Of a stretch of 24,000 nt of DNA, positions 1,212 to 16,914 are shown in pieces. Under the pieces are notes generated by a model. It ran no database searches. It was given only the letters and a program-made list of their open reading frames with translations, and was not told the DNA's origin. The stretch is from Minisyncoccota bacterium (GTDB lineage: Bacteria > Patescibacteriota > Minisyncoccia > Phycocordibacterales > Phycocordibacteraceae). The position numbers were made by a program, and so were the translations under genes. The stretch covers positions 13,268-37,267 of the forward strand of contig JAMNXM010000002.1 in the NCBI GenBank assembly GCA_023653145.1, written 5' to 3'. Positions within the stretch are counted from its first letter, which is position 1. Every line of letters starts with the position of its first letter.

Positions 1212-2483
1212 CTATACAAAAGATTCAGGAATTGGGAACTTCTGCGCAAGCGCCTTGATGTCGGCGCGCACCCTCTCCCTGAGCAACGCATCGTCTTTAT
1301 TCTTGAGCGTTTCTACCATAAGTTCTGCAACGTGGGCGCACTCTGCCTCGCCAAACTTGCGCGTGGTGATGGCCGGCGTACCAAAGCGGATGCCTGACGG
1401 ATCCATAGGCTTACGTGTATCATCCGCAATAGCATTTTTGTTGAGCGTAATCCCAACTTCATCCAAGACACGCTCTGCATCCTGTCCAGTCACTCCGAGC
1501 GAGCCATACACGTCAGCAAGAATCAGATGGTTTGAGGTGCCGCCGCCGAGCATGCGGATATTGTGCGCACGAAACACTGCCTCCATAGCCTTGGCGTTTT
1601 TGAGTACCTGCGTAGCGTAGACCTGGAACGATGGATGGAGTGCCTCACCGAACGCAACTGCCTTCGCCGCAACAACATTCATGTGTGGGCCACCTTGGAG
1701 GCCTGGGAACACTGCCTTGTCTATCTTCTTTGCCACTTCAGCATCGTCGCGCACCAAGACCATACCGCCGCGTGGTCCGCGCAGTGTTTTGTGCGTCGTC
1801 GTTGTCATAACGTCGAACCCGAAGTCAAACGGATTTTTAATCGCCTTCCCCGCGATGAGTCCTGCGATGTGCGCGATGTCCATTACTGCGTACGCTCCCA
1901 CCTCGCGCGCGATAGATACAAACTGCGCGTAGTCTAACTCGCGTGAGTATGCACTAAAGCCAGCCAACACTATCTTTGGTTTTTCTTTCTTCGCGACTTC
2001 ACGCATCTCGTCATAGTCTATTTCCCCAGTATCGGCATTCTTCATCTTGTATCGCACAAAGCGAAACACTTTAGACGGAAACGTCACTGGGTGACCGTGT
2101 GTTAAGTGTCCACCGTGCGAGAGGTCCATGCCGAGTACTGTGTCTCCTGGCTCAAGAAGTGCTGCGTACATCGCAAGATTCGCTGGTGCACCAGAGAGCG
2201 GTTGCACATTCGCAAACTGACAGTTAAACAACTTCTTTGCGCGCTCGCGTGCAATGTCCTCGACAACGTCGGTAAACTGCTGACCGCCGTAGTAGCGCGC
2301 ACCTGGGTAGCCCTCTGAATACTTGTTGGTAAACACACTCCCGTTCGCCTCGCGTACGGCACGGGACACATAGTTCTCTGATGGTATGAGCTCGAGCCCG
2401 TGCTTTTCTCGCTCCTCTTCTCCGTGGAGTGCTGCTGCTACTTCTGTATCCTGCGCTTCGATAGATGAATAGTCCATGGCCAT
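1212..2483 (-). CDS. glyA: serine hydroxymethyltransferase
   Basis: 423 aa ORF with SHMT hallmarks: LIPSENYVS, YPGARYYGG, LSHGGHLTHG, and TTTTHKTLRGPRGG containing the PLP lysine. Confidence 0.95.
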   Translation of the reverse strand: MAMDYSSIEAQDTEVAAALHGEEEREKHGLELIPSENYVSRAVREANGSVFTNKYSEGYPGARYYGGQQFTDVVEDIARERAKKLFNCQFANVQPLSGAPANLAMYAALLEPGDTVLGMDLSHGGHLTHGHPVTFPSKVFRFVRYKMKNADTGEIDYDEMREVAKKEKPKIVLAGFSAYSRELDYAQFVSIAREVGAYAVMDIAHIAGLIAGKAIKNPFDFGFDVMTTTTHKTLRGPRGGMVLVRDDAEVAKKIDKAVFPGLQGGPHMNVVAAKAVAFGEALHPSFQVYATQVLKNAKAMEAVFRAHNIRMLGGGTSNHLILADVYGSLGVTGQDAERVLDEVGITLNKNAIADDTRKPMDPSGIRFGTPAITTRKFGEAECAHVAELMVETLKNKDDALLRERVRADIKALAQKFPIPESFV

Positions 2484-2534
2484 ATGGTTAGTGTAATAAA
2501 TCGAGTATGGCTCAAGCGTCAGATCATACGCGTA

Positions 2535-3224
2535 TTATACCTTTGCTTTCAAAATGACATCCCACACCCGCTCATGTATCACTTCGCGCGGGAGTATCTC
2601 GTTGCCCTTGTTGCACACAATCTTGTGCCAGGCGCTCCCTGCTTGAATAATTTTAAGCGCCGACTTTTGTGCATTTGCAAGGTAGCGCATATCGTTCTCA
2701 ACCGTGTCCCACTTCCCTTTCAAATACTTCTTTTTATCGTTCGCAGATTTGGTGCGCAGGAGGAGTAGCGACAGTGCGACCGGAAGATGTAGATACACAA
2801 TGAGGTCCGGGCGCGGAATACCAAACACTTTATGCTCCATAGTATCGAGCCACTTGAGGAATATCCGCCGCTTTGCGGCGTTCTGTATCTTGCCACCTTG
2901 GTGCATTTGGTTAGCAGAGACGTACCGGTCAAGCACAACGTATGCGCCAGAGTTCAACGCGTCTTCAATTGCCTTTTTCGACTCAAACCGGTCTGCGGCG
3001 TAAAAGACAGATGCGATGTATGGGTCAAGGTGGAGGAAGTCACCATGGTCGCCTCGCAAACATGCACCAACGAACGCACCAAAAAAGTTATGCTCATACC
3101 GCGGGAAATCGAGGGTCACCACCTTCTTGCCAGCTTTTTTAAGACGCTCGACAAGAAGTTTCGTCTGGGTCGCCTTACCCACCCCGTCTGACCCGTCTAT
3201 AACTATGAGTTTCCCCCGCTTCAT
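2535..3224 (-). CDS. tmk: thymidylate (dTMP) kinase
   Basis: P-loop GKLIVIDGSDGVGKATQ, DRY motif (VLDRYVSAN) and a length typical of Tmk. The ORF track starts at GTG 3230. I prefer ATG 3224 (MKRGKLIVIDG) because a TACTAT hexamer sits exactly 6 nt upstream of it. Confidence 0.9.
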   Translation of the reverse strand: MKRGKLIVIDGSDGVGKATQTKLLVERLKKAGKKVVTLDFPRYEHNFFGAFVGACLRGDHGDFLHLDPYIASVFYAADRFESKKAIEDALNSGAYVVLDRYVSANQMHQGGKIQNAAKRRIFLKWLDTMEHKVFGIPRPDLIVYLHLPVALSLLLLRTKSANDKKKYLKGKWDTVENDMRYLANAQKSALKIIQAGSAWHKIVCNKGNEILPREVIHERVWDVILKAKV

Positions 3225-3230
3225 GTCCAC

Positions 3231-3236
3231 ATAGTA
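3231..3236 (-). promoter_or_regulatory. -10-like hexamer TACTAT, 6 nt upstream of the tmk ATG (leaderless geometry)
   Basis: Minus strand reads ggggTACTATgtggacATG. There is no purine-rich SD, and only 42 nt separate the tmk and thyA ATGs. Confidence 0.45.
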
Positions 3237-3254
3237 CCCCGAACCGTCCCACGG

Positions 3255-3260
3255 TACACT
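3255..3260 (+). promoter_or_regulatory. -10-like hexamer TACACT, 6 nt upstream of the thyA ATG (leaderless geometry)
   Basis: Plus strand reads cggTACACTgtgggtATGcag. The -35 region is weak. Confidence 0.4.
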
Positions 3261-3266
3261 GTGGGT

Positions 3267-4100
3267 ATGCAGGCCTACTTAGAGGTGATGGACAGAATTA
3301 TGAAAGAAGGTGTCGACCGCGAGGGACGGAACGGCACAACCCGCGCCTTATTTGCACAGCAGATACGGTTTGATTTTAAAGACGGCTTTCCTGCGGTGAC
3401 GACCAAGAAACTCGCATTCAAAGCAGTGAAGAGCGAACTCCTCTGGTTTTTGGAAGGATCAAACGATGATAATAGACTTAAGGAGTTGAATGGGAGTGAG
3501 CGCACTATCTGGACTGACAACGCTGAGGCCGACTACTGGACCCCTAAAGCCAAATTCTCAGGTGACCTTGGTCGTATCTACGGCGTGCAGTGGCGTACGT
3601 GGCAAGCACCTAATGGAAAGGTAGTCGATCAGATAGCGACGATCATAGATAAGATAAAGAATAACCCTACAGACCGCAGGCTCGTCGTGAGCGCATGGAA
3701 CCCCGGGGAACTTGATCAAATGGCACTCCCACCGTGCCACATGCTGTTTCAATTTTTCCCAAACCCAGGAACGAAAGAACTCTCTATACACATGATCCAG
3801 CGGTCATGTGACATGTTCCTTGGTGTACCGTTTAACATTGCCTCGTACGCACTCCTGCTTGCAATGGTCGCACAAGTCACTGGCTACAAACCAAAAGAGG
3901 TAGTCTTGAGCCTCAACGATGCACACATTTACCATGACCACTTTGATGCGGTGCGCGAGCAGTTGAGCCGCACCTCCTACCCACTCCCGACACTCAAACT
4001 AAACCCTGCCGTCACCGACATTAACGGATTTACGATGGATGATATAGAATTGGTCAATTACCAGTCCCACCCAGCGATAAAGGCAAAAATGATCGTATAG
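3267..4100 (+). CDS. thyA: thymidylate synthase (ThyA type)
   Basis: MQAYLEVMDRIMKEGVDREGRNGTTRALF..., RRLVVSAWNPGELDQMALPPCH (catalytic Cys), DMFLGVPFNIASYALL. The ORF track starts 2 codons earlier at GTG 3261. ATG 3267 aligns with the usual ThyA N-terminus. Confidence 0.95.
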   Translation: MQAYLEVMDRIMKEGVDREGRNGTTRALFAQQIRFDFKDGFPAVTTKKLAFKAVKSELLWFLEGSNDDNRLKELNGSERTIWTDNAEADYWTPKAKFSGDLGRIYGVQWRTWQAPNGKVVDQIATIIDKIKNNPTDRRLVVSAWNPGELDQMALPPCHMLFQFFPNPGTKELSIHMIQRSCDMFLGVPFNIASYALLLAMVAQVTGYKPKEVVLSLNDAHIYHDHFDAVREQLSRTSYPLPTLKLNPAVTDINGFTMDDIELVNYQSHPAIKAKMIV

Positions 4101-4102
4101 TT

Positions 4103-4777
4103 ATGGCACTTTCAGACAAAAAGATTTTGGAGCACATGAAGGCAGGCACCGTGGTGATTGAACCATTCATCCGTGAAAACCTCGCTACCTCAAGTTACGA
4201 TGTCACTATTGGCGAATGGTACTACCGCGAACAGCCACCAGTCGAGCACAACAAAGTATTTAACGTCTACTCCAAAGCGGACACTGAACGCGTCTGGGGT
4301 ACGAAGCCTGTGCGTGCCCTTCCTGCGAAGGAGGCGTTTAAGAACTTTGCATTTAAGTTTGAAGGTATCGCACCGACCGACCGCGTCATACTGCTCGAGC
4401 CAGGCGAGACCATCCTCGCGCACACGAACGAGTTTATTGGTGGCCGCGAGACCGTGACCACCATGATGAAGGCGCGCTCATCATTGGGCCGCAACTTCAT
4501 TAACGTCTGTAAGTGCGCTGGCTGGGGGGACGTAGGGTACGTCAACCGCTGGACGATGGAAATCTCGAACGCATCACAACACTACATAATTCCGCTCGTT
4601 GTCGGACGACGCATCGCGCAGCTCGTATTCTTTGAGACCGGTCCTATTGCTGGTAAAGACTACACTGCGGCGGGCAAATACCAAGTGACAACTGACCTCA
4701 AAAAATTGAAAAAAGCGTGGAAGCCCGACATGATGCTCCCACGACTTTGGAACGATCGCGATATCAAACATAAATGA
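4103..4777 (+). CDS. dcd: dCTP deaminase family protein (possibly bifunctional dCTP deaminase/dUTPase; not decidable by eye)
   Basis: 224 aa with an N-terminal LSDKKILEHMKAGTVVIEPF, KARSSLGRNFI, and GWGDVGYVNRWTMEISN (Dcd/Dut-fold catalytic Ser/Glu context). It starts 2 nt after the thyA stop. Confidence 0.8.
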   Translation: MALSDKKILEHMKAGTVVIEPFIRENLATSSYDVTIGEWYYREQPPVEHNKVFNVYSKADTERVWGTKPVRALPAKEAFKNFAFKFEGIAPTDRVILLEPGETILAHTNEFIGGRETVTTMMKARSSLGRNFINVCKCAGWGDVGYVNRWTMEISNASQHYIIPLVVGRRIAQLVFFETGPIAGKDYTAAGKYQVTTDLKKLKKAWKPDMMLPRLWNDRDIKHK

Positions 4778-5268
4778 CTCGCGTCTCTATAATCGCCGCC
4801 CTCGGCGAGAAGACACGAGCGCTTGGCAAAAATAACCAACTCCTCTGGCGCCTCCCTGAGGACTTAAAATACTTTAAGCAAACCACACTCGGGCACGCTG
4901 TCATCATGGGGCGCAAAACCTACGAGTCAATTGGCAAACCTCTCCCGAGCCGCACTAATATCGTCGTCACCCGTACCCCCACCTACAAGGCGGAGGGATG
5001 CAAAGTGGTTGGGTCATTGGATGACGCGCTCAAGTACGCCCAAGCACTCACGAACCCCGGCTCACCTGAATTGTTTATCATCGGTGGCGCCGACATCTAC
5101 GCGCAAGCGCTCCCCAAAGCTGACCGCCTGTACCTTACACTCGTTGACGACCCGGGCGAGGGTGCGGATGTGTTTTTCCCTGAATACGAAACGCTTTTTA
5201 CAAAAGTGATTTCTGAAGAGCGTGTAGCGGGCGCTATCCCCTCTCGCAGGGTTATTCTTGAGCGTTAG
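4774..5268 (+). CDS. folA: dihydrofolate reductase
   Basis: SIIAALGEKTRALGKNNQLLWRLPEDLKYFKQTTLGHAVIMGRKTYESIGKPLPSRTNIVVTR and LFIIGGADIYAQAL. There is a 4-nt ATGA overlap with dcd. Confidence 0.93.
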   Translation: MTRVSIIAALGEKTRALGKNNQLLWRLPEDLKYFKQTTLGHAVIMGRKTYESIGKPLPSRTNIVVTRTPTYKAEGCKVVGSLDDALKYAQALTNPGSPELFIIGGADIYAQALPKADRLYLTLVDDPGEGADVFFPEYETLFTKVISEERVAGAIPSRRVILER

Positions 5269-6001
5269 CACCTCCCTGCTTCCAGGGGGCTCTGGTTAGA
5301 AACGGGGCAAATATGTCTTCCTCCATCGGCACCTCAAATGACGTTGCTGTTTTTTTACGCTCAGTGTATGTGGTGCCAACGTAGGGTGCGTTTCGTATCC
5401 GCACCAGTGGCGTTTGCTCGTTCTGCTCCCCCATAACAAAGACCGCTGCGGCCGCGAGTGAGTCTGGAACATTGGTCTGAGAACCTCCTGACGTGTGACC
5501 TAAGAGGTCGACAGTCGCGCGATTATCGAAGAGCGGGTCGAACCCTGCCCACGCAAGCGCGGTGCCAACAACACCGCGTCTCAGTGGCACCGAGTGTGAG
5601 TCAGTAATAACGAGGTACAGAGTCTTGAGTTTGTACTCTTTCTTAAACCACTCAAGGAGTGCTCCTGCGGTCGCCTCTGGCTTCTCGGGCCAGAGCACGT
5701 AGTACCCCGCAAATGGGTCGATGCCGGCGTTCACGCAGAGCGTGTTGTTGGTAATGGTGTGCATGACCCACGACCCAGGCACCTCGGAGCGGTCAAGGTA
5801 CTGTGTTGATTCTTTTTTAATCAACTCGTCTTTGTCAGTCCCCTCTCGCGGGACACACCGACCTTGATGAATTGCTACCACCTTTGAGGCAATGCACACA
5901 ACGTCACCCTCTTGAAGAGACAATTCAGATTCTTTGATCTTTGCAAGCAAATCATCCTGCGGCGGCTCTAAAATGGCCATCTTAAATGGGTCAACTTGCA
6001 T
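5252..6001 (-). CDS. CofE-like gamma-glutamyl ligase (F420-0:gamma-glutamyl ligase family; likely folate-related given its context)
   Basis: 249 aa with EGDVVCIASKVVAIHQGR, NAGID, VITDSHSVPLRRGVVGTALAWAGF, and AAAAVFVMGEQNEQTPLVRIR, which matches the CofE layout. Its 3' end overlaps the convergent folA by 17 nt. Confidence 0.7.
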   Translation of the reverse strand: MQVDPFKMAILEPPQDDLLAKIKESELSLQEGDVVCIASKVVAIHQGRCVPREGTDKDELIKKESTQYLDRSEVPGSWVMHTITNNTLCVNAGIDPFAGYYVLWPEKPEATAGALLEWFKKEYKLKTLYLVITDSHSVPLRRGVVGTALAWAGFDPLFDNRATVDLLGHTSGGSQTNVPDSLAAAAVFVMGEQNEQTPLVRIRNAPYVGTTYTERKKTATSFEVPMEEDIFAPFLTRAPWKQGGANAQE

Positions 6002-8229: not shown

Positions 8230-9315
8230 TTAGTGCGTATGCGTGTGCGGCGCGTGACCTGGTGTACGGCCCCGAATCGCCCAAAGAGCAAGGATTGTAG
8301 CCACCGGAACGACCAAGGCAAGAGCCACAGACCCTACCGCGGCACGCACCACCTCAACGGCAATCACCTCACTGTTGAGAAGGAGCGTCGTGTTCTCGGT
8401 AGAGAGCGCGAAGAGTAATAGGAGTGGGAGCGATGCGCCCACGTACGCTAAGACGAGCGTATTCACCACTGCCCCGAGGTGCTCACGCCCTATCCGCATT
8501 GCACGAGCGTACAACTCTGTGTTCGTGAGCCCGGGGTTTGCCGACTTCAGTTCGCCGATTGCTGCAACCTGTGTCACTGCAAGGTCGTCAACAATACCGA
8601 GCGCTCCAATAATGAGCGCTCCGAGTAAGAGTCCCTCCATCTGGAGCGCACTTCCTGTTGAGATATTCAAAATGCTTGATGCGTCGTCGGCAAACCCCGA
8701 GAGGTGCGCAAAACTAACGAACGCGTCTCCTAAAAATACTGCCACAGTGACCGCAGCGAGCGATGCGAGGTACGCTGCGAGCGTCATCCGTGTTGGTCCA
8801 TGCGTGACGAGCATCACAACACCAAGCATGAGCGCCGCGCATGCAAGGGATGTTAGCGCTGGCGGATACCCACTAATAAGGAGTGGTGCCAGAATGTACA
8901 GAATGACGCCAAGCGAGAGTCCTAGTGAAATCAGTGCCCGCACCCCAATCCAACCACCAACACCGATAATGGCAGCAGCAAAAAGGAATAGCGCGATACC
9001 CATCGCAAATCCTCGATCAGCATCGTGGAGCGTATAGATATAGCCATCGACGGATTCATACTGCGCGACATACACACGACTCCCCACCTCAACAACAATG
9101 CGGTCATTGTTCACCGTCACGGTGCGTCCATCTTCAAGTTCAACCATAAGAGACTGCACGGTCTCCATAAGTGCGGTCCCGGGCACCTCGCGGCGTTCAG
9201 ACGATGCGATTCGCTCTACCGTGCCATGGATAATGGTGACGTCACCGAGTGCCGCGTGTGTAACAAGCGGCATAAACGAAACAGCGAGGAGAAACACGGC
9301 GACAGCGTACTTCAC
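8230..9315 (-). CDS. YibE/F family membrane protein with a His-rich C-terminal tail
   Basis: 361 aa: signal/anchor, soluble N-domain, multiple TM helices, and the conserved distal block GALGIVDDLAVTQVAAIGEL...RIGREHLGAVVNTLVLAYVGASLP. The C-terminus ends GHAPHTHTH. The start is GTG 9315. Confidence 0.65.
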   Translation of the reverse strand: MKYAVAVFLLAVSFMPLVTHAALGDVTIIHGTVERIASSERREVPGTALMETVQSLMVELEDGRTVTVNNDRIVVEVGSRVYVAQYESVDGYIYTLHDADRGFAMGIALFLFAAAIIGVGGWIGVRALISLGLSLGVILYILAPLLISGYPPALTSLACAALMLGVVMLVTHGPTRMTLAAYLASLAAVTVAVFLGDAFVSFAHLSGFADDASSILNISTGSALQMEGLLLGALIIGALGIVDDLAVTQVAAIGELKSANPGLTNTELYARAMRIGREHLGAVVNTLVLAYVGASLPLLLLFALSTENTTLLLNSEVIAVEVVRAAVGSVALALVVPVATILALWAIRGRTPGHAPHTHTH

Positions 9316-9329: not shown

Positions 9330-10115
9330 ATGAGCGCCATGGACCCGGTCATACTCACCATTTCAAGCGTGTTTGCAGTATCACTCGTATCGCTCGTCGG
9401 TATTGCTGCATTTTCTTTGGAAGAAAAAACGCTCCGCAAGGCACTCTTTGCACTCGTGGGGCTTGCTGCAGGCGCACTCATTGGAGACGCCATTATCCAC
9501 CTGATACCCGAATCTCTCGAAGTGATCGGCGACGAGCGCTTGTTTGGACTTGCGGTCATAGGCGGTCTTCTGGTGTTTTTCTTTCTCGAGAAGGGGCTTC
9601 GCTGGCATCACGCACACCACGGGCATGAACACGAACACACTGGGCACGAACAGTATGAGCGCGGCACACATGGACACCTTGCGCCTATGGTTATTGTTGC
9701 CGATGGAGTCCATAACGCAATTGATGGCGCAGTGATTGCCGCAAGCTTTTTGGTATCTCCCGCCCTTGGTGCAACGACAACTCTGGCAGTATTCCTCCAC
9801 GAAATCCCGCAAGAAATTGCTGACTACGCACTCCTCCTCCACTCGGGACTGAGCCGTGGTATGGCGCTGTTCTATAACTTCCTTTCAGGCGCAATGGCGT
9901 TTTTGGGTGCAGGGTTGGTACTGTGGATCGGCTCGTCGAACGAACTGGTTGGAGCATATGCTGCTGCGGCTACCGCAGGTGCGTTTATTTACCTTGCAGC
10001 GACTGACCTTATACCTGAAATAAACAAAGCACGTCCAACCCGCCGCTCAGTCATTGAGGTGTCGGCATTCCTCATTGGTATTGGTCTTATGGTTGGACTC
10101 TCCTTCCTTGAGTAG
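9330..10115 (+). CDS. ZIP family divalent metal (Zn/Fe) transporter, ZupT-like
   Basis: 261 aa with a His-rich cytoplasmic loop HHAHHGHEHEHTGHEQYERGTHGH, the ZIP signature FLHEIPQEIADYALLL, and multiple TM helices. The start could be the second ATG at 9339. Confidence 0.85.
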   Translation: MSAMDPVILTISSVFAVSLVSLVGIAAFSLEEKTLRKALFALVGLAAGALIGDAIIHLIPESLEVIGDERLFGLAVIGGLLVFFFLEKGLRWHHAHHGHEHEHTGHEQYERGTHGHLAPMVIVADGVHNAIDGAVIAASFLVSPALGATTTLAVFLHEIPQEIADYALLLHSGLSRGMALFYNFLSGAMAFLGAGLVLWIGSSNELVGAYAAAATAGAFIYLAATDLIPEINKARPTRRSVIEVSAFLIGIGLMVGLSFLE

Positions 10116-10484
10116 TTAGGTGCATTTTTTACACACCCCAAAGAACTCCAAGGAGTGCGCGTGTACTGACTTAAACTTTTTTGACTCAACAAGGGCAGCC
10201 TTTTCTAACCCGCGAGGCTCGGTGTGTACGTCTTCAATATCACCACAGGTGGTGCACACAATGTGGTGATGATGCTCTCCTGCTACTTCGTAACGAGGTA
10301 CACGCCCACCAAAATCTACACGGCGAATAGATCCTTCAGAACTCATTTCAGTAATGGCTCTATACACCGTGGAGAGATGCACACTCTGCCCAGCAGACTT
10401 TCGTATCTCGCGTACCGTGAGTGGCTGTTGCGCTTTACTGAGCACTTCTTGGATTACTTTTCGGTCATTGGTGGTGCGTTTCAT
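10116..10484 (-). CDS. Fur family transcriptional regulator (Zur/PerR-like)
   Basis: 122 aa with an N-terminal winged-helix region (LTVREIRK...STVYRAITEM), then HHHHIVCTTCG and a C-terminal CKKC (structural Cys4 site). A 4-nt ATGA overlap joins it to the upstream class V gene, and its stop codon directly abuts the ZIP stop. Confidence 0.85.
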   Translation of the reverse strand: MKRTTNDRKVIQEVLSKAQQPLTVREIRKSAGQSVHLSTVYRAITEMSSEGSIRRVDFGGRVPRYEVAGEHHHHIVCTTCGDIEDVHTEPRGLEKAALVESKKFKSVHAHSLEFFGVCKKCT

Positions 10485-11656
10485 AGTGCGTTAGAAAAAG
10501 TGTGTAGCACATCAAGGTATGTGTCTATATCCTGCTTACTAGTATACGCATGAACACTCACTCGTACAGAGTCACCAATGTTTATTGGGTCGAAATTACA
10601 ATGTGTTCCTGACCGTACATAGATAGTGTGTTGGTTTAGGTACTGACCAACTTCTACTGACGAAGCACCGCTGAGAGTGAAGGACAGAATTCCATTACCT
10701 GAATTGCACCCACATTGAGCAATGCCCGTAGTGAATACGACACTCGGAATGCTCCGCATACCCTCATACGTATACTTCGTTACCTCTTCAACTACTGCCT
10801 CTATCTGAGCCATCCCAATCTCTGCAGCAAAATCAAAAAATGCTCCGAGCGAGTATATCCCTGCGACATGTGGTGTCCCCTCGAAAAGTCTGCCTGGGTT
10901 GGAAAAGAGTGTTGGGCGCAGAAATACAACACCCACCCCTTGTGCTGCGAATGCCTTATGTCCTGACGTATGCAGTACATCAATCCCCATCCCCTCTACG
11001 TCTATAACTGCTTTTGATAAACTTTGTGCACCATCAACCTGAATAATGATGTTTCGAGATTTCAGGAATGCAATTTTTTCTGAATTGTAAAGAATCTCAG
11101 AAGCATTCCCGTAGACGTTATGGATGTGTGTGAGATTAACAAGCCTCGTGCGAGCCGTCACCTTTGATTTGAGATCTGCCCAATCTATTTGTCCATTCTT
11201 CGAAACTATGAGTTCCACGATTTTGACTCGTTTTCCAAGCGCAGCATAGACAGCTGCAACTTCATACCAAGGTTGCACATATGACTGATGATCAGAGGGT
11301 GACACGAGAATCTCATCCCCGTCCTGGAGGAGTTGTTCAAAAAACATGTTTGTTACCCCTCGCATCGAATGACTTGCCCCAAAAGAGAAAAAGATGCTCT
11401 CAGGTGTAGGAGCCCCAATATGAACACTTGCCTGCTCCCGTATACGTGCAATTTTGCGTTGTGCAATAACATCTAAAGTGGAGAGTGAACGCCCCACATT
11501 CGTGTTTTCTTTTGTGTAGAAAGACGTTATTACATCGATAGCTTTTCCGAGTTTCTGCGTGGTTGAGGCGCTATCAAGGAAGATGAGATCGGGACGTTCT
11601 CTAAATATCGGAAACTGATCTCTGATCTTTAGTGTGTCAGGAAATACCCTACTCAT
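10481..11656 (-). CDS. class V (fold type I) PLP enzyme, SufS/CsdA-like cysteine desulfurase family
   Basis: 391 aa with FLDSASTTQK, THIHNVYG, VDGAQS, SGHKAFAAQGVGVVFLR (PLP Lys) and VRSGTHCNF (catalytic Cys context of group II desulfurases). Confidence 0.75.
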   Translation of the reverse strand: MSRVFPDTLKIRDQFPIFRERPDLIFLDSASTTQKLGKAIDVITSFYTKENTNVGRSLSTLDVIAQRKIARIREQASVHIGAPTPESIFFSFGASHSMRGVTNMFFEQLLQDGDEILVSPSDHQSYVQPWYEVAAVYAALGKRVKIVELIVSKNGQIDWADLKSKVTARTRLVNLTHIHNVYGNASEILYNSEKIAFLKSRNIIIQVDGAQSLSKAVIDVEGMGIDVLHTSGHKAFAAQGVGVVFLRPTLFSNPGRLFEGTPHVAGIYSLGAFFDFAAEIGMAQIEAVVEEVTKYTYEGMRSIPSVVFTTGIAQCGCNSGNGILSFTLSGASSVEVGQYLNQHTIYVRSGTHCNFDPINIGDSVRVSVHAYTSKQDIDTYLDVLHTFSNAL

Positions 11657-12939
11657 AAATACTGTGCCACTTCCTGCATCCCTCCCCGCAACGAGGCGGC
11701 ATCATACCCCTGTGTGCGCAAAAACCCTGCTAGGTATGCTGATTTATCACCAACGGCACATACGAAAAGTAACTTCTGACTCTTCGAAAACGGAATGGCA
11801 GAGTCAATCACATGAGACAGTAGGTCATACGGATAGTTCAACGCGCCTGGAATATGTTTGAGCGAGAACGAAACCGGAACCCGTGTATCAATTACGAGAT
11901 AGTCACTACTTACTACTTGATAGTCTGAAAGAGATACTTCGATTGAATGTGCACGGTACTGTTCTCCCCCACCGTCTAGCCATGAAGACTTTTTGCGCTG
12001 GCCGAACAGTTCAGGTATTCGTTTCTTGAGGTAGTCGACATACCACTCATATCGATCGCACACGATAAACACCGCATTCATGGGTTTCGTTGCTCGAGCA
12101 TCTAGTTCAGCGAGAACTTCTAAACTTTTATAGAAATTTATGCCGGCACTTGGACCCCCCAGCACGCCAAGTTTGTCGCGTAGCATACACATCCCGTCTA
12201 TTGCTTCCCGTGATGCGCACTCAATAATCCTTTCGTACTCTTTCTCTTGATAAAGACCAATCTCAAACAATTCATCAGCACCTCGGATACCTGGGATAAA
12301 ATCATCTTTATGCGCCACAAGTCCAAACGCTTTCAAAGATTGGTTTTGTTCTTTAAACCGCTTAATCATACCGAGCGTCGAGCCGGTTGTGCCAAGTCCT
12401 CCTATGACTACATCTACGGACCCGAGGTCACTTAAAATTTCCTGAGCGGTTGTCTCATAGTGAACCTGCCAATTGCGCTCATTCGTAAACTGATCAGTAT
12501 AGATACGCTGCGCAGGATCTACCTGCATCTCTCTTTGGATCTCATAAATTGGATCATTCGGATCACTTGGGTCAAAACACTCGCTCTTCCCCGGCATGAT
12601 CCGTATTGATGTGCCAAGCGACGCTAGTATATCCTTTACGTTCTCAAGTTTAATGAGATTCGTAATGATTCGTAGCTCGCCTCCAAAAAGCTTGGTGAGC
12701 ATTTGGAGTGCTTTTGCCGTGTTTCCGCTGGACGACTCAAGTACTACCTTACCCGCCAAGGTGCCCGCATCAATGTATGGCTTTAGTAACGCATATGATG
12801 TCCGATCCTTTACAGAGCCCCACGGATTTTGATTTTCAAGTTTTGCATACAACTTAATGTTCTTAAAGCCAGTGACCGACTGTGGCACTTCAAGAAGTGG
12901 CGTATTCCCAATAGTGTCTACTATGTGTGTATAGATCAT
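11653..12939 (-). CDS. fold type II PLP enzyme (CysK/CBS/SbnA-like beta-replacement family) fused to a C-terminal rhodanese domain
   Basis: 428 aa with GSVKDR (PLP Lys), SSGNTA (Asn loop) and GGLGTTGST (Gly loop). The C-terminal ~110 aa read LVIDTRVPVSFSLKHIPGALNYP...LLFVCAVGDKSAYLAGFL, a rhodanese active-site Cys loop. Confidence 0.75.
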   Translation of the reverse strand: MIYTHIVDTIGNTPLLEVPQSVTGFKNIKLYAKLENQNPWGSVKDRTSYALLKPYIDAGTLAGKVVLESSSGNTAKALQMLTKLFGGELRIITNLIKLENVKDILASLGTSIRIMPGKSECFDPSDPNDPIYEIQREMQVDPAQRIYTDQFTNERNWQVHYETTAQEILSDLGSVDVVIGGLGTTGSTLGMIKRFKEQNQSLKAFGLVAHKDDFIPGIRGADELFEIGLYQEKEYERIIECASREAIDGMCMLRDKLGVLGGPSAGINFYKSLEVLAELDARATKPMNAVFIVCDRYEWYVDYLKKRIPELFGQRKKSSWLDGGGEQYRAHSIEVSLSDYQVVSSDYLVIDTRVPVSFSLKHIPGALNYPYDLLSHVIDSAIPFSKSQKLLFVCAVGDKSAYLAGFLRTQGYDAASLRGGMQEVAQYL

Positions 12940-14375
12940 AGGTGAATGTAGTTCTCATCTTCATACCACTCAACACCCTCTGCACGGCGCACTAATGCTA
13001 TCTTACGCGCTACACGCTGCTTAAGTGTTGTACTTTCAGAGAAATCCATGAGGTATGGTGCGGTATTCATAAACAAAAGTACATCTCCTACGGACACAGG
13101 TTGCCCAAAAAAGAATTTTCTTCTCGATATAAAATCTGCAGGTAAACATAAATTTCCAACCAAGAAACCTTCACCCACAGCATCACGAGACCCGTCCGTT
13201 TTCGAAAAGAGAACTAGTGGATCGGGCATATACTCTTGATCAGTCGCATTGATATTCGTGCGGTTCATGTCCAACACTATAAGAGTTTGCCCGTGTTCAG
13301 TTTTCTTAATGTGCATGATTTTCGCAGCAGTAAAGCCGGCTTGATCGAAAAACGATTGTCCTGGCTCAATACATATACGGACCCCAAGATCGCGTAACAC
13401 ATCAGCTAGTGGCGATCCGGTATCATCAAAAGGGCTCAGGAGGATTTCGCGGAGCGTTTCAAACTGGTTCTTCGGTTGGTAATAGTCAGAGAACGATTTA
13501 CTCCCGCGCAGTTTCCCTCCCTCAACGTTAAACCCAAGCCCAGATCTATTCCAGGTTAACTCTGTCTGGTCACCCTGCAGTACACTCGCTTTAAGTGTAG
13601 AAATAAACTCATCCCACTCTGTCTTCGACGCGAGATGATTGATCAGGTATCCACCCCCTATATCAATATCTGTGAGGGCAAAATTTGGATGCTGTTCTTT
13701 TTTATACACAATGAACGTCTGTAATGCTTCATTGAGCATTGCCACTCGCTCGCTCACCTTATCTGTTGAAAAATGAAAAGAGAATCCCTTAAGGAGGAGA
13801 TACGACGAGGTGCGCACCCGAGCAACCGCTGCCGCAACCTCAGCAGGCGGGACCCCGAATCGATCTGGTCTATTCGTAATTCGTCTTGGTATCGCAAGTC
13901 GGATATAAATTGGAACACGCACTGGATGCATTGGACCGATGAGTTCTGAACACAGTGCCTCAATACGATCTAACTCATGTATGTCATCAACATTAATGAG
14001 CACCTTATGGAGAACGCACGATTTAAGAAACTCATCGTTTTTTGGACCTGTTGCCTCTATACGTTCACCAGAAAACCCTGCTATAAGCGCATCAGAGAGT
14101 TCTCCTAAAGAGGCGACATCAATGCTCGAACCTGAGAATGCCATACGCCGAGCTATTGCCTTAGATTTATTTGCCTTTGCGGCAAGATAGACCGTACTGC
14201 GCACACCGAGTGATTCAAACAGTGCATTAAATTTTTGGTAGTTCCCAAATGCGACTTCAGGTAGAACTACGTTGAGCGGAGAGCCATACGTACGTATAAG
14301 TGAGCGCAGCACCTCCTCTTCGCGTAAGTATGCATCTACCTCTGGACAAACATATGGCGTTAAACGACTACTCAT
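12936..14375 (-). CDS. type III PLP enzyme of the Orn/DAP/Arg decarboxylase (alanine-racemase-fold) family
   Basis: YLAAKANKS (PLP Lys), GFSFHFS, DIGGGY, CIEPGQSF (EPGR-like) and GNLCLPADF (catalytic Cys region). The ORF track extends to 14507, but those 44 codons lie inside the ATPase gene. ATG 14375 (MSSRLTPYV) gives an ATGAGTAG 8-nt overlap with the ATPase stop. Confidence 0.75.
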   Translation of the reverse strand: MSSRLTPYVCPEVDAYLREEEVLRSLIRTYGSPLNVVLPEVAFGNYQKFNALFESLGVRSTVYLAAKANKSKAIARRMAFSGSSIDVASLGELSDALIAGFSGERIEATGPKNDEFLKSCVLHKVLINVDDIHELDRIEALCSELIGPMHPVRVPIYIRLAIPRRITNRPDRFGVPPAEVAAAVARVRTSSYLLLKGFSFHFSTDKVSERVAMLNEALQTFIVYKKEQHPNFALTDIDIGGGYLINHLASKTEWDEFISTLKASVLQGDQTELTWNRSGLGFNVEGGKLRGSKSFSDYYQPKNQFETLREILLSPFDDTGSPLADVLRDLGVRICIEPGQSFFDQAGFTAAKIMHIKKTEHGQTLIVLDMNRTNINATDQEYMPDPLVLFSKTDGSRDAVGEGFLVGNLCLPADFISRRKFFFGQPVSVGDVLLFMNTAPYLMDFSESTTLKQRVARKIALVRRAEGVEWYEDENYIHL

Positions 14376-15321
14376 ATGTAAAAGTGGTGTCGATTTGCGA
14401 ACGGATGTCCCCCACCGCCTGACGAATCCAGTCCTCCTGGCTGCACTGCTCGTGAAGAGTATGCATACGCTCAAGATACGTCTGCGGATCTTGGTACAGC
14501 GAATCAATCGTAGAAAGCATGGTACTGATTGCCGGATCGAAAACAGTACTGGTTTTGAGAGTGTCCAGTTTAAGCCCAGAGCGGCGCGCCTCCTTAAGAT
14601 CCTTAAGTTCTGCTACGGTACCGAGTCGATGTTGAGACGGAATTTTCGAATCAAGAAATGCAGTGTCCGAGGCATCCTGAATCTTGTTGTATATAACAAG
14701 TATTCTGTCTTGTATTCCAGTTTCCTTAGCAAGCGCACTGTACTGATTGAATACATTAACACTCTCTACTGTAGGCTCAACAGCAAGAATGAAAGCGTCA
14801 AACTGGGCGTACATAGTATTTGCGAAGGCATCGACGCCCGCAACCATATCTGCAATCAAATACTCATCACGTGCAATGCGAGAAAAACGAAGAAGGTTCT
14901 CTAAGATTGCTAAGTTCGTGTGGTAGCACGTGGTCCCTATAACATCCTTAGTGTATGTTCCAACCTCACCTACGAATGCGTTATCCGCATAGTGCGCAAA
15001 GTAATCACGAACCAAAGGGTCACGTGATGACACCGTAAGCAAATTACACCCACGAGACGGTGGTGTTGAATAATACATATGATCTGGTGAAGCTATGCGG
15101 GTGGAAGTGCCGATCATGTGGGTGCGGATTTTTTGCATGTTGCCAGGCAACGATAGATTCTTGTCTTCAGAAAGCGTGATGGTAAGCAAATCTCGAACAT
15201 GCATATTGAGGTCCGCATCAATAAACAACACGTGCTTCCCGAGCCTAACCAGTTCAAGGAAAAAGAAAGCCGATACGGTGCTCTTCCCACTCCCACCCTT
15301 ACCAACAAAGGCCAGTTTCAT
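14368..15321 (-). CDS. CooC/MinD/ParA-class (SIMIBI) P-loop ATPase, CooC-like
   Basis: 317 aa with the deviant Walker A MKLAFVGKGGSGKST, FIDADLN, and the Walker B-like LIADMVAGVDAF. Where I recall CooC carrying a CxC metal site, this protein reads GTTCYHTNLAILENLL. Confidence 0.7.
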   Translation of the reverse strand: MKLAFVGKGGSGKSTVSAFFFLELVRLGKHVLFIDADLNMHVRDLLTITLSEDKNLSLPGNMQKIRTHMIGTSTRIASPDHMYYSTPPSRGCNLLTVSSRDPLVRDYFAHYADNAFVGEVGTYTKDVIGTTCYHTNLAILENLLRFSRIARDEYLIADMVAGVDAFANTMYAQFDAFILAVEPTVESVNVFNQYSALAKETGIQDRILVIYNKIQDASDTAFLDSKIPSQHRLGTVAELKDLKEARRSGLKLDTLKTSTVFDPAISTMLSTIDSLYQDPQTYLERMHTLHEQCSQEDWIRQAVGDIRSQIDTTFTYE

Positions 15322-15335
15322 ACTATATAAAGGAC

Positions 15336-15364
15336 ACTATAGACTAATTGCGAATATTTCGCAA
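15336..15364 (-). promoter_or_regulatory. candidate promoter of the ATPase-PLP-Fur operon, with a 17-bp palindromic operator candidate overlapping the -35
   Basis: Minus strand reads TTGCGA(-35)-17 nt-TATAGT(-10)-14 nt-ATG. The inverted repeat TTGCGAA-tat-TTCGCAA (15348-15364) covers the -35. Read as TGCGAAT-a-TTTCGCA, it has the 7-1-7 format of Fur-family boxes with one inner mismatch. Confidence 0.5.
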
Positions 15365-15450
15365 TAATGCTACCATGATGAGCGGCGGCAGAATACGCTT
15401 ATCTCGCCGCAAATTTGATACACACATTACCAGATACAAAAAGTTAACCT

Positions 15451-15705
15451 ATGAGTGAAGAATGTGAAGATGTCGTAGCGCACAGAAATAAGTCAAATAC
15501 CTATTTCATCTTGAGTGCAGTCTCTGCTGTACTATTTCTTGGTTCAGTTGGAGCAAACGTGCTTGAAGTTGAGCCGTTTGGCGAATACTCTGACGAGGCG
15601 TTTAATCTTGTCGCTGTACTTGCCTTTTTGGCTACGGTCCCGCTACTCTCTGTTGCTATAACTGAACGCAGGGAAGCAAACAAGGGCTGTCAGCACGAAG
15701 ACTAA
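15451..15705 (+). CDS. hypothetical small membrane protein (84 aa, two predicted TM helices)
   Basis: The ORF has two hydrophobic stretches (YFILSAVSAVLFLGSVGANVL and LVAVLAFLATVPLLSVAI) and a strong terminator 18 nt downstream. I found no recognisable family and no clear promoter or RBS. Confidence 0.4.
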   Translation: MSEECEDVVAHRNKSNTYFILSAVSAVLFLGSVGANVLEVEPFGEYSDEAFNLVAVLAFLATVPLLSVAITERREANKGCQHED

Positions 15706-15723: not shown

Positions 15724-15752
15724 AAAAACGAGAGCAGAGGCTCTCGTTTTTT
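15724..15752. terminator. bidirectional rho-independent terminator
   Basis: aaaaaCGAGAGC-agag-GCTCTCGtttttt. It sits between the convergent 84-aa ORF (+) and the RGG small ORF/DUF475 operon (-). Confidence 0.8.
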
Positions 15753-15770
15753 GCTATCTCGTAACTCTTT

Positions 15771-15896
15771 CTACTTTGACTTCTTCCCACCGCGTGCCGA
15801 GCCGCCACGACTTGCCCCGCCACGGCGCGCCATACGGACCGGCGCCGGCTGATGATAGAAACTCTCTTGGAACGGCCCCTGCTTATTGGTTTTCAT
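15771..15896 (-). CDS. hypothetical 41-aa basic RGG-repeat protein (below the ORF-track cutoff as an independent ORF)
   Basis: My translation from ATG 15896 is MKTNKQGPFQESFYHQPAPVRMARRGGASRGGSARGGKKSK. It is preceded by TATACT-gagtgt-ATG (a -10-like hexamer exactly 6 nt upstream) and followed by the 15724-15752 terminator. Confidence 0.4.
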   Translation of the reverse strand: MKTNKQGPFQESFYHQPAPVRMARRGGASRGGSARGGKKSK

Positions 15897-15902
15897 ACAC
15901 TC

Positions 15903-15908
15903 AGTATA
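15903..15908 (-). promoter_or_regulatory. -10-like hexamer TATACT, 6 nt upstream of the RGG small-ORF ATG
   Basis: Minus strand reads TAGgTATACTgagtgtATG, where TAG is the DUF475 stop. Confidence 0.4.
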
Positions 15909-15909
15909 C

Positions 15910-16914
15910 CTACCCTTTTGTCTGGAGTCGGACCGACGACCAGTATGCTGCGAGTACAAATGAAATACCGATAGTCCCTGTAACGATCTCGGGGACTTCT
16001 GTAAGCAGTGCAACAAACATAGATACGGCGAGACCAAAGATTGCCCAATGCGCACCATGCTCTAGGTACTTAAGAGTCTCAAGAGTGCGTTGGCGCACCA
16101 TATACACCGTAAGTGAGCGGACAAAAAATGCACCGATGCCGAGACCTACCGCAATGATGGGGATAGAGCTCGTCAATGCAAAGGCACCAATAACGCCGTC
16201 GAGAGAAAACGCTGCGTCGAGCACCTCAAGATACATAAAGAGGGCGAATGAGTGTTTTGCGGTTTCTGTAGCCTCAACCGAAAAGGCGCTGGTGATGCCC
16301 TGCATCACGATGAACAAAATGACTCCGATCATGCCACCTGCGAGCACTGTTGCGCGCGCCTCGAGCGGCACCAAAAACGAGATACCCGCAATAATTATGA
16401 GTGCAGTAACGATTTCAATTGCCTCTATTCTCCCCCATCGCGCAAGTCTCCGCTCAAGCACGGCAACCCAGTGCACGTCCTTTTCAGCATCAAGAAAGTA
16501 CTTGAGAGCGACCATCATGAGGAACGCTGCCCCAAAGGAGTGGATCGCGTAACCTGCCTCGTGGAGGAGTTCGCCATAGTGCACCGGATCAAAGAGTGCC
16601 ATCTGCGTAATCGCCCACGGAGACGTCCACACCACTACGGAGACAATTACAATTGGGAGGACGAATCGAGTACCAAACACTGCAATAAGGATTCCCCACG
16701 TTAAAAACCGATGCTGCCATTCGGCAGACATGCGTTTCAACACTTTTGCATTCACAACCGCGTTGTCGAATGACAGCGTCACTTCAAGGAGTATCAAAAG
16801 CACCGTCACGAAAAGTGCTGCCCACCCACCATATACAAACATTGCCCCGAGCCCTGCCACCGTGATTCCGAACGAAAACCAGAAATGCTTTAAAAGATGT
16901 GCGACTGTTTGCAT
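15910..16914 (-). CDS. DUF475 / TerC-superfamily integral membrane protein
   Basis: 334 aa, polytopic, with LEVTLSFDNAVVNAKVLKRM and a second EVLDAAFSLDGVIGAFA repeat typical of DUF475/TerC-like proteins. Confidence 0.65.
   Translation of the reverse strand: MQTVAHLLKHFWFSFGITVAGLGAMFVYGGWAALFVTVLLILLEVTLSFDNAVVNAKVLKRMSAEWQHRFLTWGILIAVFGTRFVLPIVIVSVVVWTSPWAITQMALFDPVHYGELLHEAGYAIHSFGAAFLMMVALKYFLDAEKDVHWVAVLERRLARWGRIEAIEIVTALIIIAGISFLVPLEARATVLAGGMIGVILFIVMQGITSAFSVEATETAKHSFALFMYLEVLDAAFSLDGVIGAFALTSSIPIIAVGLGIGAFFVRSLTVYMVRQRTLETLKYLEHGAHWAIFGLAVSMFVALLTEVPEIVTGTIGISFVLAAYWSSVRLQTKG

Follow-up and report, generated by a model that had tools for sequence, protein, structure and literature searches.

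What would a member of the Patescibacteria, a group thought to have almost no biosynthetic capacity, do with an operon that encodes three different pyridoxal phosphate (PLP) enzymes, a CooC-like ATPase, and a Fur-family regulator? The question is raised by a 24,000-nucleotide stretch of a Minisyncoccota bacterium genome (contig JAMNXM010000002.1 of assembly GCA_023653145.1, positions 13,268 to 37,267 of the forward strand), which we call the window. We found that the operon represents a conserved, metal-regulated biosynthetic cassette that is apparently undescribed. A first-pass annotation of this DNA had put the operon forward as a candidate for an undescribed system; we found no characterized pathway with the same cassette in the open-access literature, nor any description of the cassette itself, which is not proof of absence. 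In our judgment, the case is evenly balanced that the five genes act as one metal-repressed unit making a small metal-binding metabolite, with repression of the Fur/Zur type, a serine ester that undergoes β-replacement and then decarboxylation to an aminoethyl ligand, sulfur relayed as a persulfide, and metal handled by the CooC-like ATPase.

A five-gene operon with intact catalytic motifs

The operon comprises, in order of transcription:

14368 to 15321, minus strand: CooC-like ATPase with a deviant Walker A motif, 317 amino acids (Pfam CbiA/ParA-type P-loop).
12936 to 14375, minus strand: type III PLP decarboxylase-like enzyme, closest to SbnH, 479 amino acids (Pfam Orn_Arg_deC_N, 74 bits).
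11653 to 12939, minus strand: PALP::rhodanese fusion, a fold-type II PLP β-replacement enzyme joined to a single rhodanese domain, 428 amino acids (Pfam).
10481 to 11656, minus strand: SufS-like class V PLP enzyme, 391 amino acids (Pfam Aminotran_5, 237.7 bits).
10116 to 10484, minus strand: Fur-family regulator, 122 amino acids, the last gene of the operon (Pfam FUR, 71.6 bits).

Successive genes overlap by 8, 4, 4, and 4 nucleotides, the first junction reading ATGAGTAG and the other three ATGA. The decarboxylase open reading frame (ORF) was listed from an upstream TTG, and it is the ATG at 14375 that produces the 8-nucleotide overlap. No Shine-Dalgarno-like sequence stands ahead of any of the five starts, and the genes are therefore probably translated via the overlaps. 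The stop codon of the regulator gene (10116-10118) abuts that of a convergent gene for a ZIP-family transporter (10113-10115). The coordinates thus confirm the overlapping minus-strand ORFs, the gene order, and the touching stops described in the first-pass annotation, and Pfam and NCBIfam profile searches confirm its gene identities. The motifs that it had picked out (AAKANKS, EPGQ, CLPAD, SVKDR, SSGNTA, CAVGDKS, SGHK, and GTHC) are present in the translations, at family-conserved positions. None of the operon proteins attains the curated cutoff of any NCBIfam equivalog; they are thus not the housekeeping enzymes.

Conservation and host range of the cassette

A scan of one genome per species for the fusion gene returned at least 591 matching stretches, placing the gene in at least 591 species-level genomes, and 80 loci were kept. 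Neighborhood counts cover 88 loci (individual loci are given L numbers below), the high-G+C ones having been filtered by third-position G+C against spurious overlapping ORFs. The two closest homologs of the fusion are 70% and 68% identical to it and the next large set 43-49%, all with the PALP+Rhodanese architecture. The hosts of the kept loci include Patescibacteria, Micavibrio, Bdellovibrionota, Melainabacteria/Obscuribacterales, a filamentous cyanobacterium, and many Nocardia, Streptomyces, and Actinoplanes.

The decarboxylase gene adjoins the fusion gene in every locus (88/88), and a SufS-like gene lies next to this pair in 71. A metal-handling partner accompanies the core in 64 of the 88 loci: the CooC-like ATPase in 26, all non-actinobacterial, and an HMA-domain protein in 38 of Nocardia type. 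A FUR gene adjoins the cassette in 18. The order in Micavibrio aeruginosavorus is Aminotran_5, CbiA, Orn_Arg_deC, PALP-Rhodanese, FUR, and gene neighborhoods place the same cassette in a Melainabacteria genome and in another Patescibacteria genome. In Nocardia, the ATPase slot between the SufS-like gene and the decarboxylase gene holds an unrelated protein of about 430 amino acids whose sole Pfam match is a C-terminal HMA domain with the motif MTCKHC (38 loci within L031-L084, e.g. L034:7177-8463). The core pair persists in Streptomyces and Bdellovibrionota with neither the ATPase nor the HMA-domain protein. The core is thus decarboxylase plus fusion, usually joined by a desulfurase-like enzyme and one of two nonhomologous metal-handling proteins. 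Because the adjacency of the core pair is kept across several phyla, chance juxtaposition is excluded, and the gene combination singled out in the first-pass annotation proves to be a conserved one. In the window, the G+C content of the operon is 0.458, compared with about 0.52 on both flanks and 0.529 in the adjacent ZIP gene; this low value and the patchy host range suggest that the cassette may have been acquired horizontally as a unit.

Several loci carry further genes. Two decarboxylase-fusion pairs occur per locus in two Bdellovibrionota (L025 and L030), with no SufS-like or ATPase gene nearby, and the second pair adjoins an unannotated protein of 490-529 amino acids. In the Micavibrio-type loci L001, L009, L011, L017, L027, and L029, two proteins consistently stand ahead of the cassette, one of the DUF2946 type and the other unannotated and about 360 amino acids long, and the 3′ side of the M. 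aeruginosavorus cassette holds Oxidored_FMN, SulP/STAS sulfate-transporter-family, and aldo-keto-reductase genes. In Melainabacteria, the cassette is immediately followed by a 64-amino acid ORF with a Cys-rich stretch, CTCCPCC (L003:11401-11595 and also L004:1848-2042), whose product may be small and metal-binding. The related loci were searched for a small ORF that regularly goes with the cassette, and none was found.

The core enzymes resemble those of aminopolycarboxylate and siderophore pathways

In the fusion protein, Pfam places PALP at residues 8-295 (125 bits) and Rhodanese at 346-425 (42 bits), and the AlphaFold2 model has a predicted local distance difference test score (pLDDT) of 87. 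Its best solved match is the aspergillomarasmine A (AMA) synthase (8H4H/8H4Q), with 100 bits by sequence and a fold E value of 6e-27 over both domains. For the PALP domain alone, the structures of CysM, CBS, and SbnA follow close behind, by a small margin; β-cyanoalanine synthases are also among the structural matches and are not the closest. Across 89 sequences, K44, the SSGN loop at 70-73, C121, PGxR at 216-219, C294-D-R, and the rhodanese C394 are identical in all 89. The PLP lysine K44 and the loop S70-S71-G72-N73 are the features of a PALP β-replacement enzyme. The loop C394-A-V-G-D-K-S has the form CxxGxx[ST] of rhodanese sulfurtransferases, whose six-residue active-site loop begins with the catalytic Cys; C394 and G397 are kept in 89/89 and S/T400 in 88/89. 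Among NCBIfam models, CysM scores highest (141.1 bits against a cutoff of 413), ahead of cysKM (138.1 against 344), the SbnA family (TIGR03945, 126.9 against 349.95), and CysK (103.2 against 350.95).

Two fungal enzymes, AMA synthase from Aspergillus oryzae and the Fusarium poae enzyme Fda4, share the architecture of the window fusion, a cysteine-synthase-fold PLP domain followed by a rhodanese-like domain whose loop carries a Cys. The former converts O-phosphoserine and aspartate to AMA, a Zn-sequestering aminopolycarboxylate, and the latter joins O-phosphoserine to alanine en route to 2,3-diaminopropionate (PMC12751119). The Fda cluster also encodes a FAD oxidoreductase, an N-acetyltransferase, and an MFS transporter, in which it resembles the larger bacterial versions of the cassette. 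The architecture reported in the first-pass annotation is therefore real, but it is not unprecedented. The two proteins are, however, fungal, only about 24% identical to the window fusion, and not clustered with a decarboxylase, desulfurase, ATPase, or Fur regulator; moreover, the bacterial fusion family has invariant motifs of its own, such as Cys121 in SxCxDP, that are missing from the aligned AMA synthase. Because both fungal enzymes form C-N bonds, the rhodanese domain alone is no proof of sulfur incorporation.

The decarboxylase has SbnH (6KNH) as its best PDB match. It is not a LysA equivalog, scoring 104.9 bits with that model (TIGR01048) against a cutoff of 297.9, and K67, H201, GGG at 240-242, EPG at 337-339, and C410 are kept in at least 90% of 63 homologs. 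In type III decarboxylases these are, in turn, the lysine that binds PLP, the stacking His, the phosphate loop, the EPG motif, and the catalytic Cys. Since AMA synthase and SbnH are the nearest solved relatives, the core pair points to a logic of "serine-derived unit plus decarboxylation". In Staphylococcus aureus, SbnA and SbnH, a cysteine-synthase-fold enzyme and a type III PLP decarboxylase, build an ethylenediamine unit within the Fur-regulated staphyloferrin B operon (PMC7139808). The window pairs the same two kinds of enzyme but lacks the NIS synthetases SbnC/E/F (NIS denotes siderophores independent of nonribosomal peptide synthetases), the SbnB dehydrogenase, SbnG, and SbnI; conversely, the sbn system lacks a desulfurase and a CooC-like ATPase, and its SbnA is without a rhodanese domain. 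The first-pass annotation had already remarked on several of these absences. The scan of window ORFs agrees with it, since no NIS synthetase (IucA/IucC-type), SbnB-like dehydrogenase, SufE/SufU/SufBCD gene, or other Suf/Isc scaffold gene was found among them, and no NIS synthetase was found among the examined neighbors in relatives either. A similar pairing is known from [S,S]-ethylenediaminedisuccinate (EDDS) synthesis: Spohn et al. (2016/2018) are said to have described aes as built from an SbnA-like and a diaminopimelate-decarboxylase-like enzyme. Clusters of the aes/EDHA type reportedly contain an SbnB-like enzyme and no desulfurase, rhodanese fusion, or ATPase; the window, by comparison, has no SbnB-like gene. 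The EDDS pathway of Amycolatopsis japonicum is repressed by zinc under Zur control (PMC9252823), and the EDHA cluster, another aminopolycarboxylate cluster of this Zur-controlled actinomycete type, is cited in PMC8914351.

The SufS-like enzyme does not reach the cutoff of its nearest model (TIGR01979, 232.6 bits against 475.1). Its residues H123, D208, Q211, H233-K234, and C353 are kept in at least 90% of homologs, including the divergent Micavibrio-type group. Among them are the features of a group II desulfurase, namely the PLP lysine of the HK pair, the Asp and Gln ligands of PLP, and the catalytic Cys in a GHHC-like loop. Class V desulfurases pass persulfide to an acceptor Cys, and in the CysM-CysO system of Mycobacterium tuberculosis a CysM-type O-phosphoserine enzyme draws sulfur from a protein carrier as a thiocarboxylate. 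The fusion resembles this system in that CysM models head its NCBIfam matches and its fold matches include structures of CysM. It differs in that its presumed carrier is the fused rhodanese domain, not a ThiS-like thiocarboxylate, and in its obligatory linkage to a decarboxylase. An invariant rhodanese Cys and a desulfurase gene that is often adjacent argue that a genuine persulfide relay may run from the SufS-like enzyme to this residue, as far as the sequences can tell.

The ATPase is CooC-like but not a CooC

The proposed kinship of the ATPase with CooC holds in both sequence and fold. CooC1 (3KJE) was its best match by sequence (E = 3e-8) and by fold (E = 5e-11, against 2e-8 for MinD), and in the AlphaFold2 model (pLDDT 93.5) about 70 additional C-terminal residues form a helical extension. 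With CooC1 and AcsF, which insert nickel into CO dehydrogenase and acetyl-CoA synthase, it shares the fold, the deviant Walker A motif GKGGxGK[ST] with its signature lysine, and a metal motif at the same position. The Walker A motif reads G7-K8-G9-G10-S11-G12-K13-S14-T15, and K8, G9, G10, G12, K13, and T15 are invariant in 24 homologs. The "QCYC" of CooC1, which contains the Cys-x-Cys nickel site at the dimer interface, aligns to "TCYH" in the window protein, where C132, Y133, and H134 are likewise invariant in the 24. Unlike CooC1 and AcsF, it has Cys-Tyr-His in place of Cys-x-Cys, carries the C-terminal extension, and has no carbon monoxide dehydrogenase/acetyl-CoA synthase (CODH/ACS) genes nearby, none being found among the scanned window ORFs or the called or scanned neighbors in the examined related loci. 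Two of three CooC features, the CxC motif and the CODH context, are thus missing from the family, whose members bear the JGI label "CO dehydrogenase maturation factor". The family forms a compact, separate group: a search of 1.84 billion proteins gave 284 cluster representatives at E ≤ 1e-30. If the protein forms a CooC-type dimer, it would present a Cys2His2 metal site, a geometry typical of zinc.

A nucleotide-dependent part in zinc supply has a precedent in the COG0523 proteins (CobW/ZigA/YciC-type), which are putative metal chaperones under zinc-limitation control (PMC2770081). These are, however, G3E GTPases, and the MinD/CooC-type ATPase of the window has no sequence relationship to them beyond the P-loop.

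Several loci contain two ATPase paralogs in tandem. In two relatives the ATPase is fused, to a HAD phosphatase (L089:8001-9689) and to an S-adenosylmethionine (SAM) methyltransferase (L090:1069-2796), each time beside an unfused paralog, and these fusions tie the ATPase to biosynthetic genes. Upstream in L089 stands a weak ParB_N-type gene, and the serine kinase SbnI is of this fold class. A role for the ATPase in substrate activation, in the manner of BioD/CobQ-type enzymes, was set aside in view of the signature lysine and the alignment to the CooC metal motif; the fusions to methyltransferase and HAD phosphatase leave it some room.

Promoter, operator, and regulator

Two regulatory features lie at the head of the operon:

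15336 to 15364, minus strand: sigma-70-type promoter with −35 TTGCGA, a 17-nucleotide spacer, and −10 TATAGT.
15347 to 15365 (core; imperfect arms to 15340 to 15372), no strand: operator-like palindrome, recognized in the sequence.

The promoter matches the −35/−10 consensus at 9 of 12 positions and would leave a very short leader ahead of the ATG at 15321. The palindrome, whose core reads ATTGCGAA-TAT-TTCGCAAT and which extends to 15-nucleotide arms at 15340-15372, overlaps the −35, as the positions of both make plain and as the first-pass annotation had stated. It is the sole match in the window, and 8 of 100 shuffles matched at ≤3 mismatches. A second copy was sought in the window, especially upstream of the ZIP gene, and none was found, the 1-mismatch matches lying inside genes.

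Related Patescibacteria loci hold the same type of operator. In 187 kb of these loci the motif TGC[GA]A-N5-T[CT]GCA (TGCrA-N5-TyGCA) was found 11 times, compared with 0.63 ± 0.78 times in shuffles, and nearly all matches fall in promoter regions of cassette, FUR, or ZIP genes. Operator-type palindromes lie upstream of the cassette in L008, twice in L015, and twice in L005 (TGCAACTCAGTTGCA and TGCGACTTAATCGCA); in L088, the palindrome TGCGAATGATTCGCA immediately precedes the ATPase start. The ATPases of L087 and the window share 62% identity, and in L087 the motif lies 34 nucleotides upstream of a ZIP-CobW (COG0523) operon divergent from the cassette. Directly upstream of the L087 cassette itself is an inverted repeat with arms of about 22 nucleotides (L087:9935-9990; ATATCACAATGTACATACTAAT … ATTAGTATGTACATTGTGATAT), which is unlike the TGCrA-N5-TyGCA operator of the neighboring ZIP-CobW operon.

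The regulator belongs to the Fur family (PF01475), with 71.6 bits against a cutoff of 23.1. It carries two CxxC pairs and an HHHH motif, and the pairs C77-x2-C80 and C118-x2-C121 are kept in the alignment of 18 cassette-linked FUR proteins. In the Fur family, such pairs make up the structural Zn site of the C-terminal dimerization domain, which follows an N-terminal winged helix. Its best PDB matches are a Fur followed by the Zur proteins of Streptomyces coelicolor and M. tuberculosis. The HHHH block and a downstream Glu and His align with actinobacterial Zur, and the N-terminal His that we take to serve Fur/PerR sites is absent from its sequence. The regulatory site of Zur from S. coelicolor and M. 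tuberculosis has Asp, Cys, His, and His as its ligands. Profile scores and PDB matches are ambiguous as to whether the window regulator is a Zur, a Fur, or a PerR.

Contexts in more distant relatives also point to metal control. Zur repressors govern genes for zinc acquisition such as ZIP/ZnuABC, COG0523 genes, and paralogs of ribosomal proteins that need no zinc. COG0523 genes, a hallmark of zinc-limitation regulons (PMC2770081), adjoin the cassette in L003, L025, and L087, and in the Melainabacteria locus L003 the neighbors are FUR, CobW-CobW-Sel1, and ribosomal protein S18. In Micavibrio, the last gene of the cassette encodes a regulator with the pattern "...YVxC...H.H...CxxC". This pattern matches that of proteobacterial Zur proteins such as Escherichia coli Zur. 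Zur-box-like sites of the form TG[GA]AAACC[AG]TTTTCA stand at the cluster starts of three loci of cyanobacterial lineage (L019, L010, and L013), and such sites also occur inside three Streptomyces loci, 3′ of the SufS-like gene. In Nocardia, TetR and PucR-type regulators replace FUR, and a search of these loci for an actinobacterial-type Zur box gave nothing convincing. Judged from sequence, the conserved operator type and the Zur-type contexts in relatives support the metal-dependent control proposed in the first-pass annotation, and the repressing metal of the operon is most likely zinc.

A proposed pathway and its alternatives

Larger versions of the cluster hold tailoring and export genes, which supports a small-molecule pathway. 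Obscuribacterales-type clusters add a flavin amine oxidase, GNAT-like, SAM methyltransferase, and Asp/Asn-hydroxylase-like (2-oxoglutarate-hydroxylase-like) genes, and BT1/MFS transporters; Streptomyces clusters add a methyltransferase, an Acetyltransf_6 protein, and a DegT-type aminotransferase; L089 adds a Cys/Met-metabolism PLP enzyme, an NNMT/PNMT/TEMT-type methyltransferase, and a DAO-type oxidase; and in L001, L019, and L037, RND and membrane-fusion genes lie beside the cassette.

From the relatives and contexts described above we infer the substrates, the product, the incorporation of sulfur, the metal, and the role of the ATPase in the following scheme. The metal-bound Fur-family protein would occupy the palindrome over the −35 and repress the operon, including its own gene, and metal scarcity would bring the operon to expression. 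The PALP domain would turn O-phospho- or O-acetyl-serine into a PLP-aminoacrylate to which a nucleophile is then added, and the SbnH-like enzyme would remove the α-carboxylate to leave a 2-aminoethyl unit of ethylenediamine or cysteamine type. The SufS-like enzyme would transfer sulfur from cysteine, as a persulfide, to the invariant rhodanese Cys of the fusion, and the relayed persulfide could serve as the sulfur nucleophile or supply a thiol in the product. The ATPase would dimerize on ATP, hold a metal between two Cys-x-His motifs, and load or unload it for either the ligand or a client protein. The annotation's cautious suggestion, metal-responsive synthesis of a small ligand, is supported, with a product and a metal that we infer. 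More tentatively, and as a minority possibility, the cassette might be a hitherto unrecognized zinc-starvation module, mobile by horizontal transfer, that serves reduced-genome epibionts, predators, and actinomycetes; it would combine two new components, a persulfide-fed PLP route (from the SufS-like enzyme by way of the rhodanese Cys to AMA-synthase-like β-replacement and SbnH-like decarboxylation) to a new thiol-bearing zincophore or zinc buffer of aminoethyl/ethylenediamine type, and a CooC-fold ATPase representing a new class of zinc metallochaperone through a Cys2His2 site across its dimer, in a COG0523-like role.

Several observations weigh against this scheme or parts of it. The CysM, CysK/M, and SbnA models score about equally on the PALP domain, all below cutoff, and do not separate C-N from C-S bond formation. 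AMA synthase and Fda4 have no clustered desulfurase, so their rhodanese-like domain may not carry sulfur. The ATPase fusions would be equally compatible with a part in biosynthesis instead of chaperoning, for example in supplying or handling a phosphorylated substrate. There is no dedicated exporter or ligand-importer gene within the window operon, which is the minimal form of the cluster, and this weakens the reading as a secreted metallophore for this organism. As for zinc, the Glu of the window regulator aligns to the regulatory-site Cys of actinobacterial Zur, and Fur/PerR models score the regulator as well, the top NCBIfam model being PerR/Fur, far below cutoff. The HMA domain with MTCKHC in Nocardia, the CsoR gene and the HMA and P-type ATPase genes beside L005, and the CusB-like membrane-fusion/RND genes in L037 point to copper rather than zinc in some lineages.

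The chief alternative, which we regard as unlikely, is an intracellular thiol pathway, in which a persulfide-fed CysM-like domain would yield cysteine or cysteine persulfide and from it a cysteamine-type thiol that buffers or mobilizes zinc or copper in a cell lacking glutathione-type thiols. The CysM model is the best NCBIfam match of the PALP domain (141 bits), there is no or almost no variation at the rhodanese Cys and at the catalytic Cys of the SufS-like enzyme, and both the SufS-like gene in 71 of 88 loci and the operon without an exporter would suit such a route. It would, however, be circular in using the sulfur of cysteine to rebuild cysteine; the nearest two-domain relatives form C-N bonds, and MFS or RND exporters adjoin the cassette in many relatives. 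We think it clearly improbable that the cassette matures a metallocenter, the ATPase or HMA protein inserting metal into a client while SufS and rhodanese give sulfide and the other PLP enzymes an organic ligand, much as in operons dedicated to the assembly of a cofactor. That idea draws on the CooC relationship with its conserved Cys-x-His motif and on the 64 of 88 loci with a metal-handling partner, a nonhomologous metal-binding protein taking the same slot in Nocardia. Yet the cassette has no conserved neighbor that could be a client metalloenzyme, the core pair survives without either partner in Streptomyces and Bdellovibrionota, and the tailoring enzymes and exporters of relatives favor a free small molecule.

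Chemistry apart from metal supply deserves very little weight. The β-cyanoalanine-synthase fold and rhodanese both act on cyanide, and cyanide handling, or a toxic amino-acid analog made by predators and epibionts, could be imagined from the β-cyanoalanine synthases among the PALP structural matches and from hosts rich in predators, epibionts, and antibiotic producers. Those synthases are not the closest relatives, though, and the Fur/Zur-type regulators, the Zur-box-like sites, and the COG0523, ZIP, and HMA neighbors would be left unexplained. That housekeeping genes (LysA, CysK/CysM, SufS, and a MinD-like ATPase) lie side by side by chance is barely credible: all five do belong to large housekeeping superfamilies, but no protein reaches the curated cutoff of a housekeeping equivalog, the 88/88 adjacency over several phyla contradicts the idea, the genes are joined by start/stop overlaps, and the low G+C of the operon suggests acquisition as a unit.

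Genes flanking the operon

The operon has two neighbors on its 3′ side:

9330 to 10115, plus strand: ZIP-family metal importer, convergent neighbor of the operon (Pfam Zip, 139.7 bits; ZupT model below cutoff).
8230 to 9315, minus strand: YibE/F-like membrane protein (Pfam), a neighbor of the cassette in L088, the closest relative, as well.

A functional linkage of the ZIP gene to the operon is only suggested, and a ZIP neighbor of the cassette recurs in one relative only (L087). The flanks otherwise hold ordinary chromosomal genes (SHMT, Tmk, ThyA, Dcd, DHFR, NusG, and tRNAs). Positions 1212-6001 form a compact thymidylate/folate group (SHMT, thymidylate kinase, ThyA, a dCTP deaminase-like protein, and DHFR), followed by a CofE-like gene (F420-0:γ-glutamyl-ligase-like), which is unexpected in a Patescibacteria genome.

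On the other side, an 84-amino acid ORF with two predicted hydrophobic helices (15451-15705, plus strand) diverges from the operon promoter region, and no homolog of it was found beside the cassette in any related locus. At about 15724-15753, an A-run, an 8-bp G+C-rich hairpin (ACGAGAGC-AGAG-GCTCTCGT), and a T-run, unlisted by the consensus scan, separate the promoter region and this ORF from an upstream DUF475/TerC-like gene (15910-16914); the arrangement looks like a bidirectional intrinsic terminator. An ORF at 15771-16058 on the minus strand overlaps the 3′ end of the DUF475 gene and has an Arg/Gly-rich C terminus (…RRGGASRGGSARGGKKSK); it may encode a small basic protein or be a chance frame.

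Significance

Metallophore chemistry that couples a serine-derived unit to a decarboxylase under Fur/Zur control is already known, and two components of the cassette have no described counterpart there. If our proposal is true, the cassette represents a widespread and unstudied route to a small metal ligand, and the "serine plus decarboxylation" chemistry of the AMA, EDDS, and staphyloferrin type would gain a sulfur relay. Zn chelators of the AMA/EDDS class are of interest as metallo-β-lactamase inhibitors, and the presence of the cassette in cultivable Nocardia and Streptomyces makes the proposal directly testable. The CooC branch of P-loop ATPases would then act outside CO dehydrogenase maturation. 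For the Patescibacteria, a four-enzyme pathway kept in a reduced genome would mean that metal scavenging or buffering strongly constrains epibiotic life.

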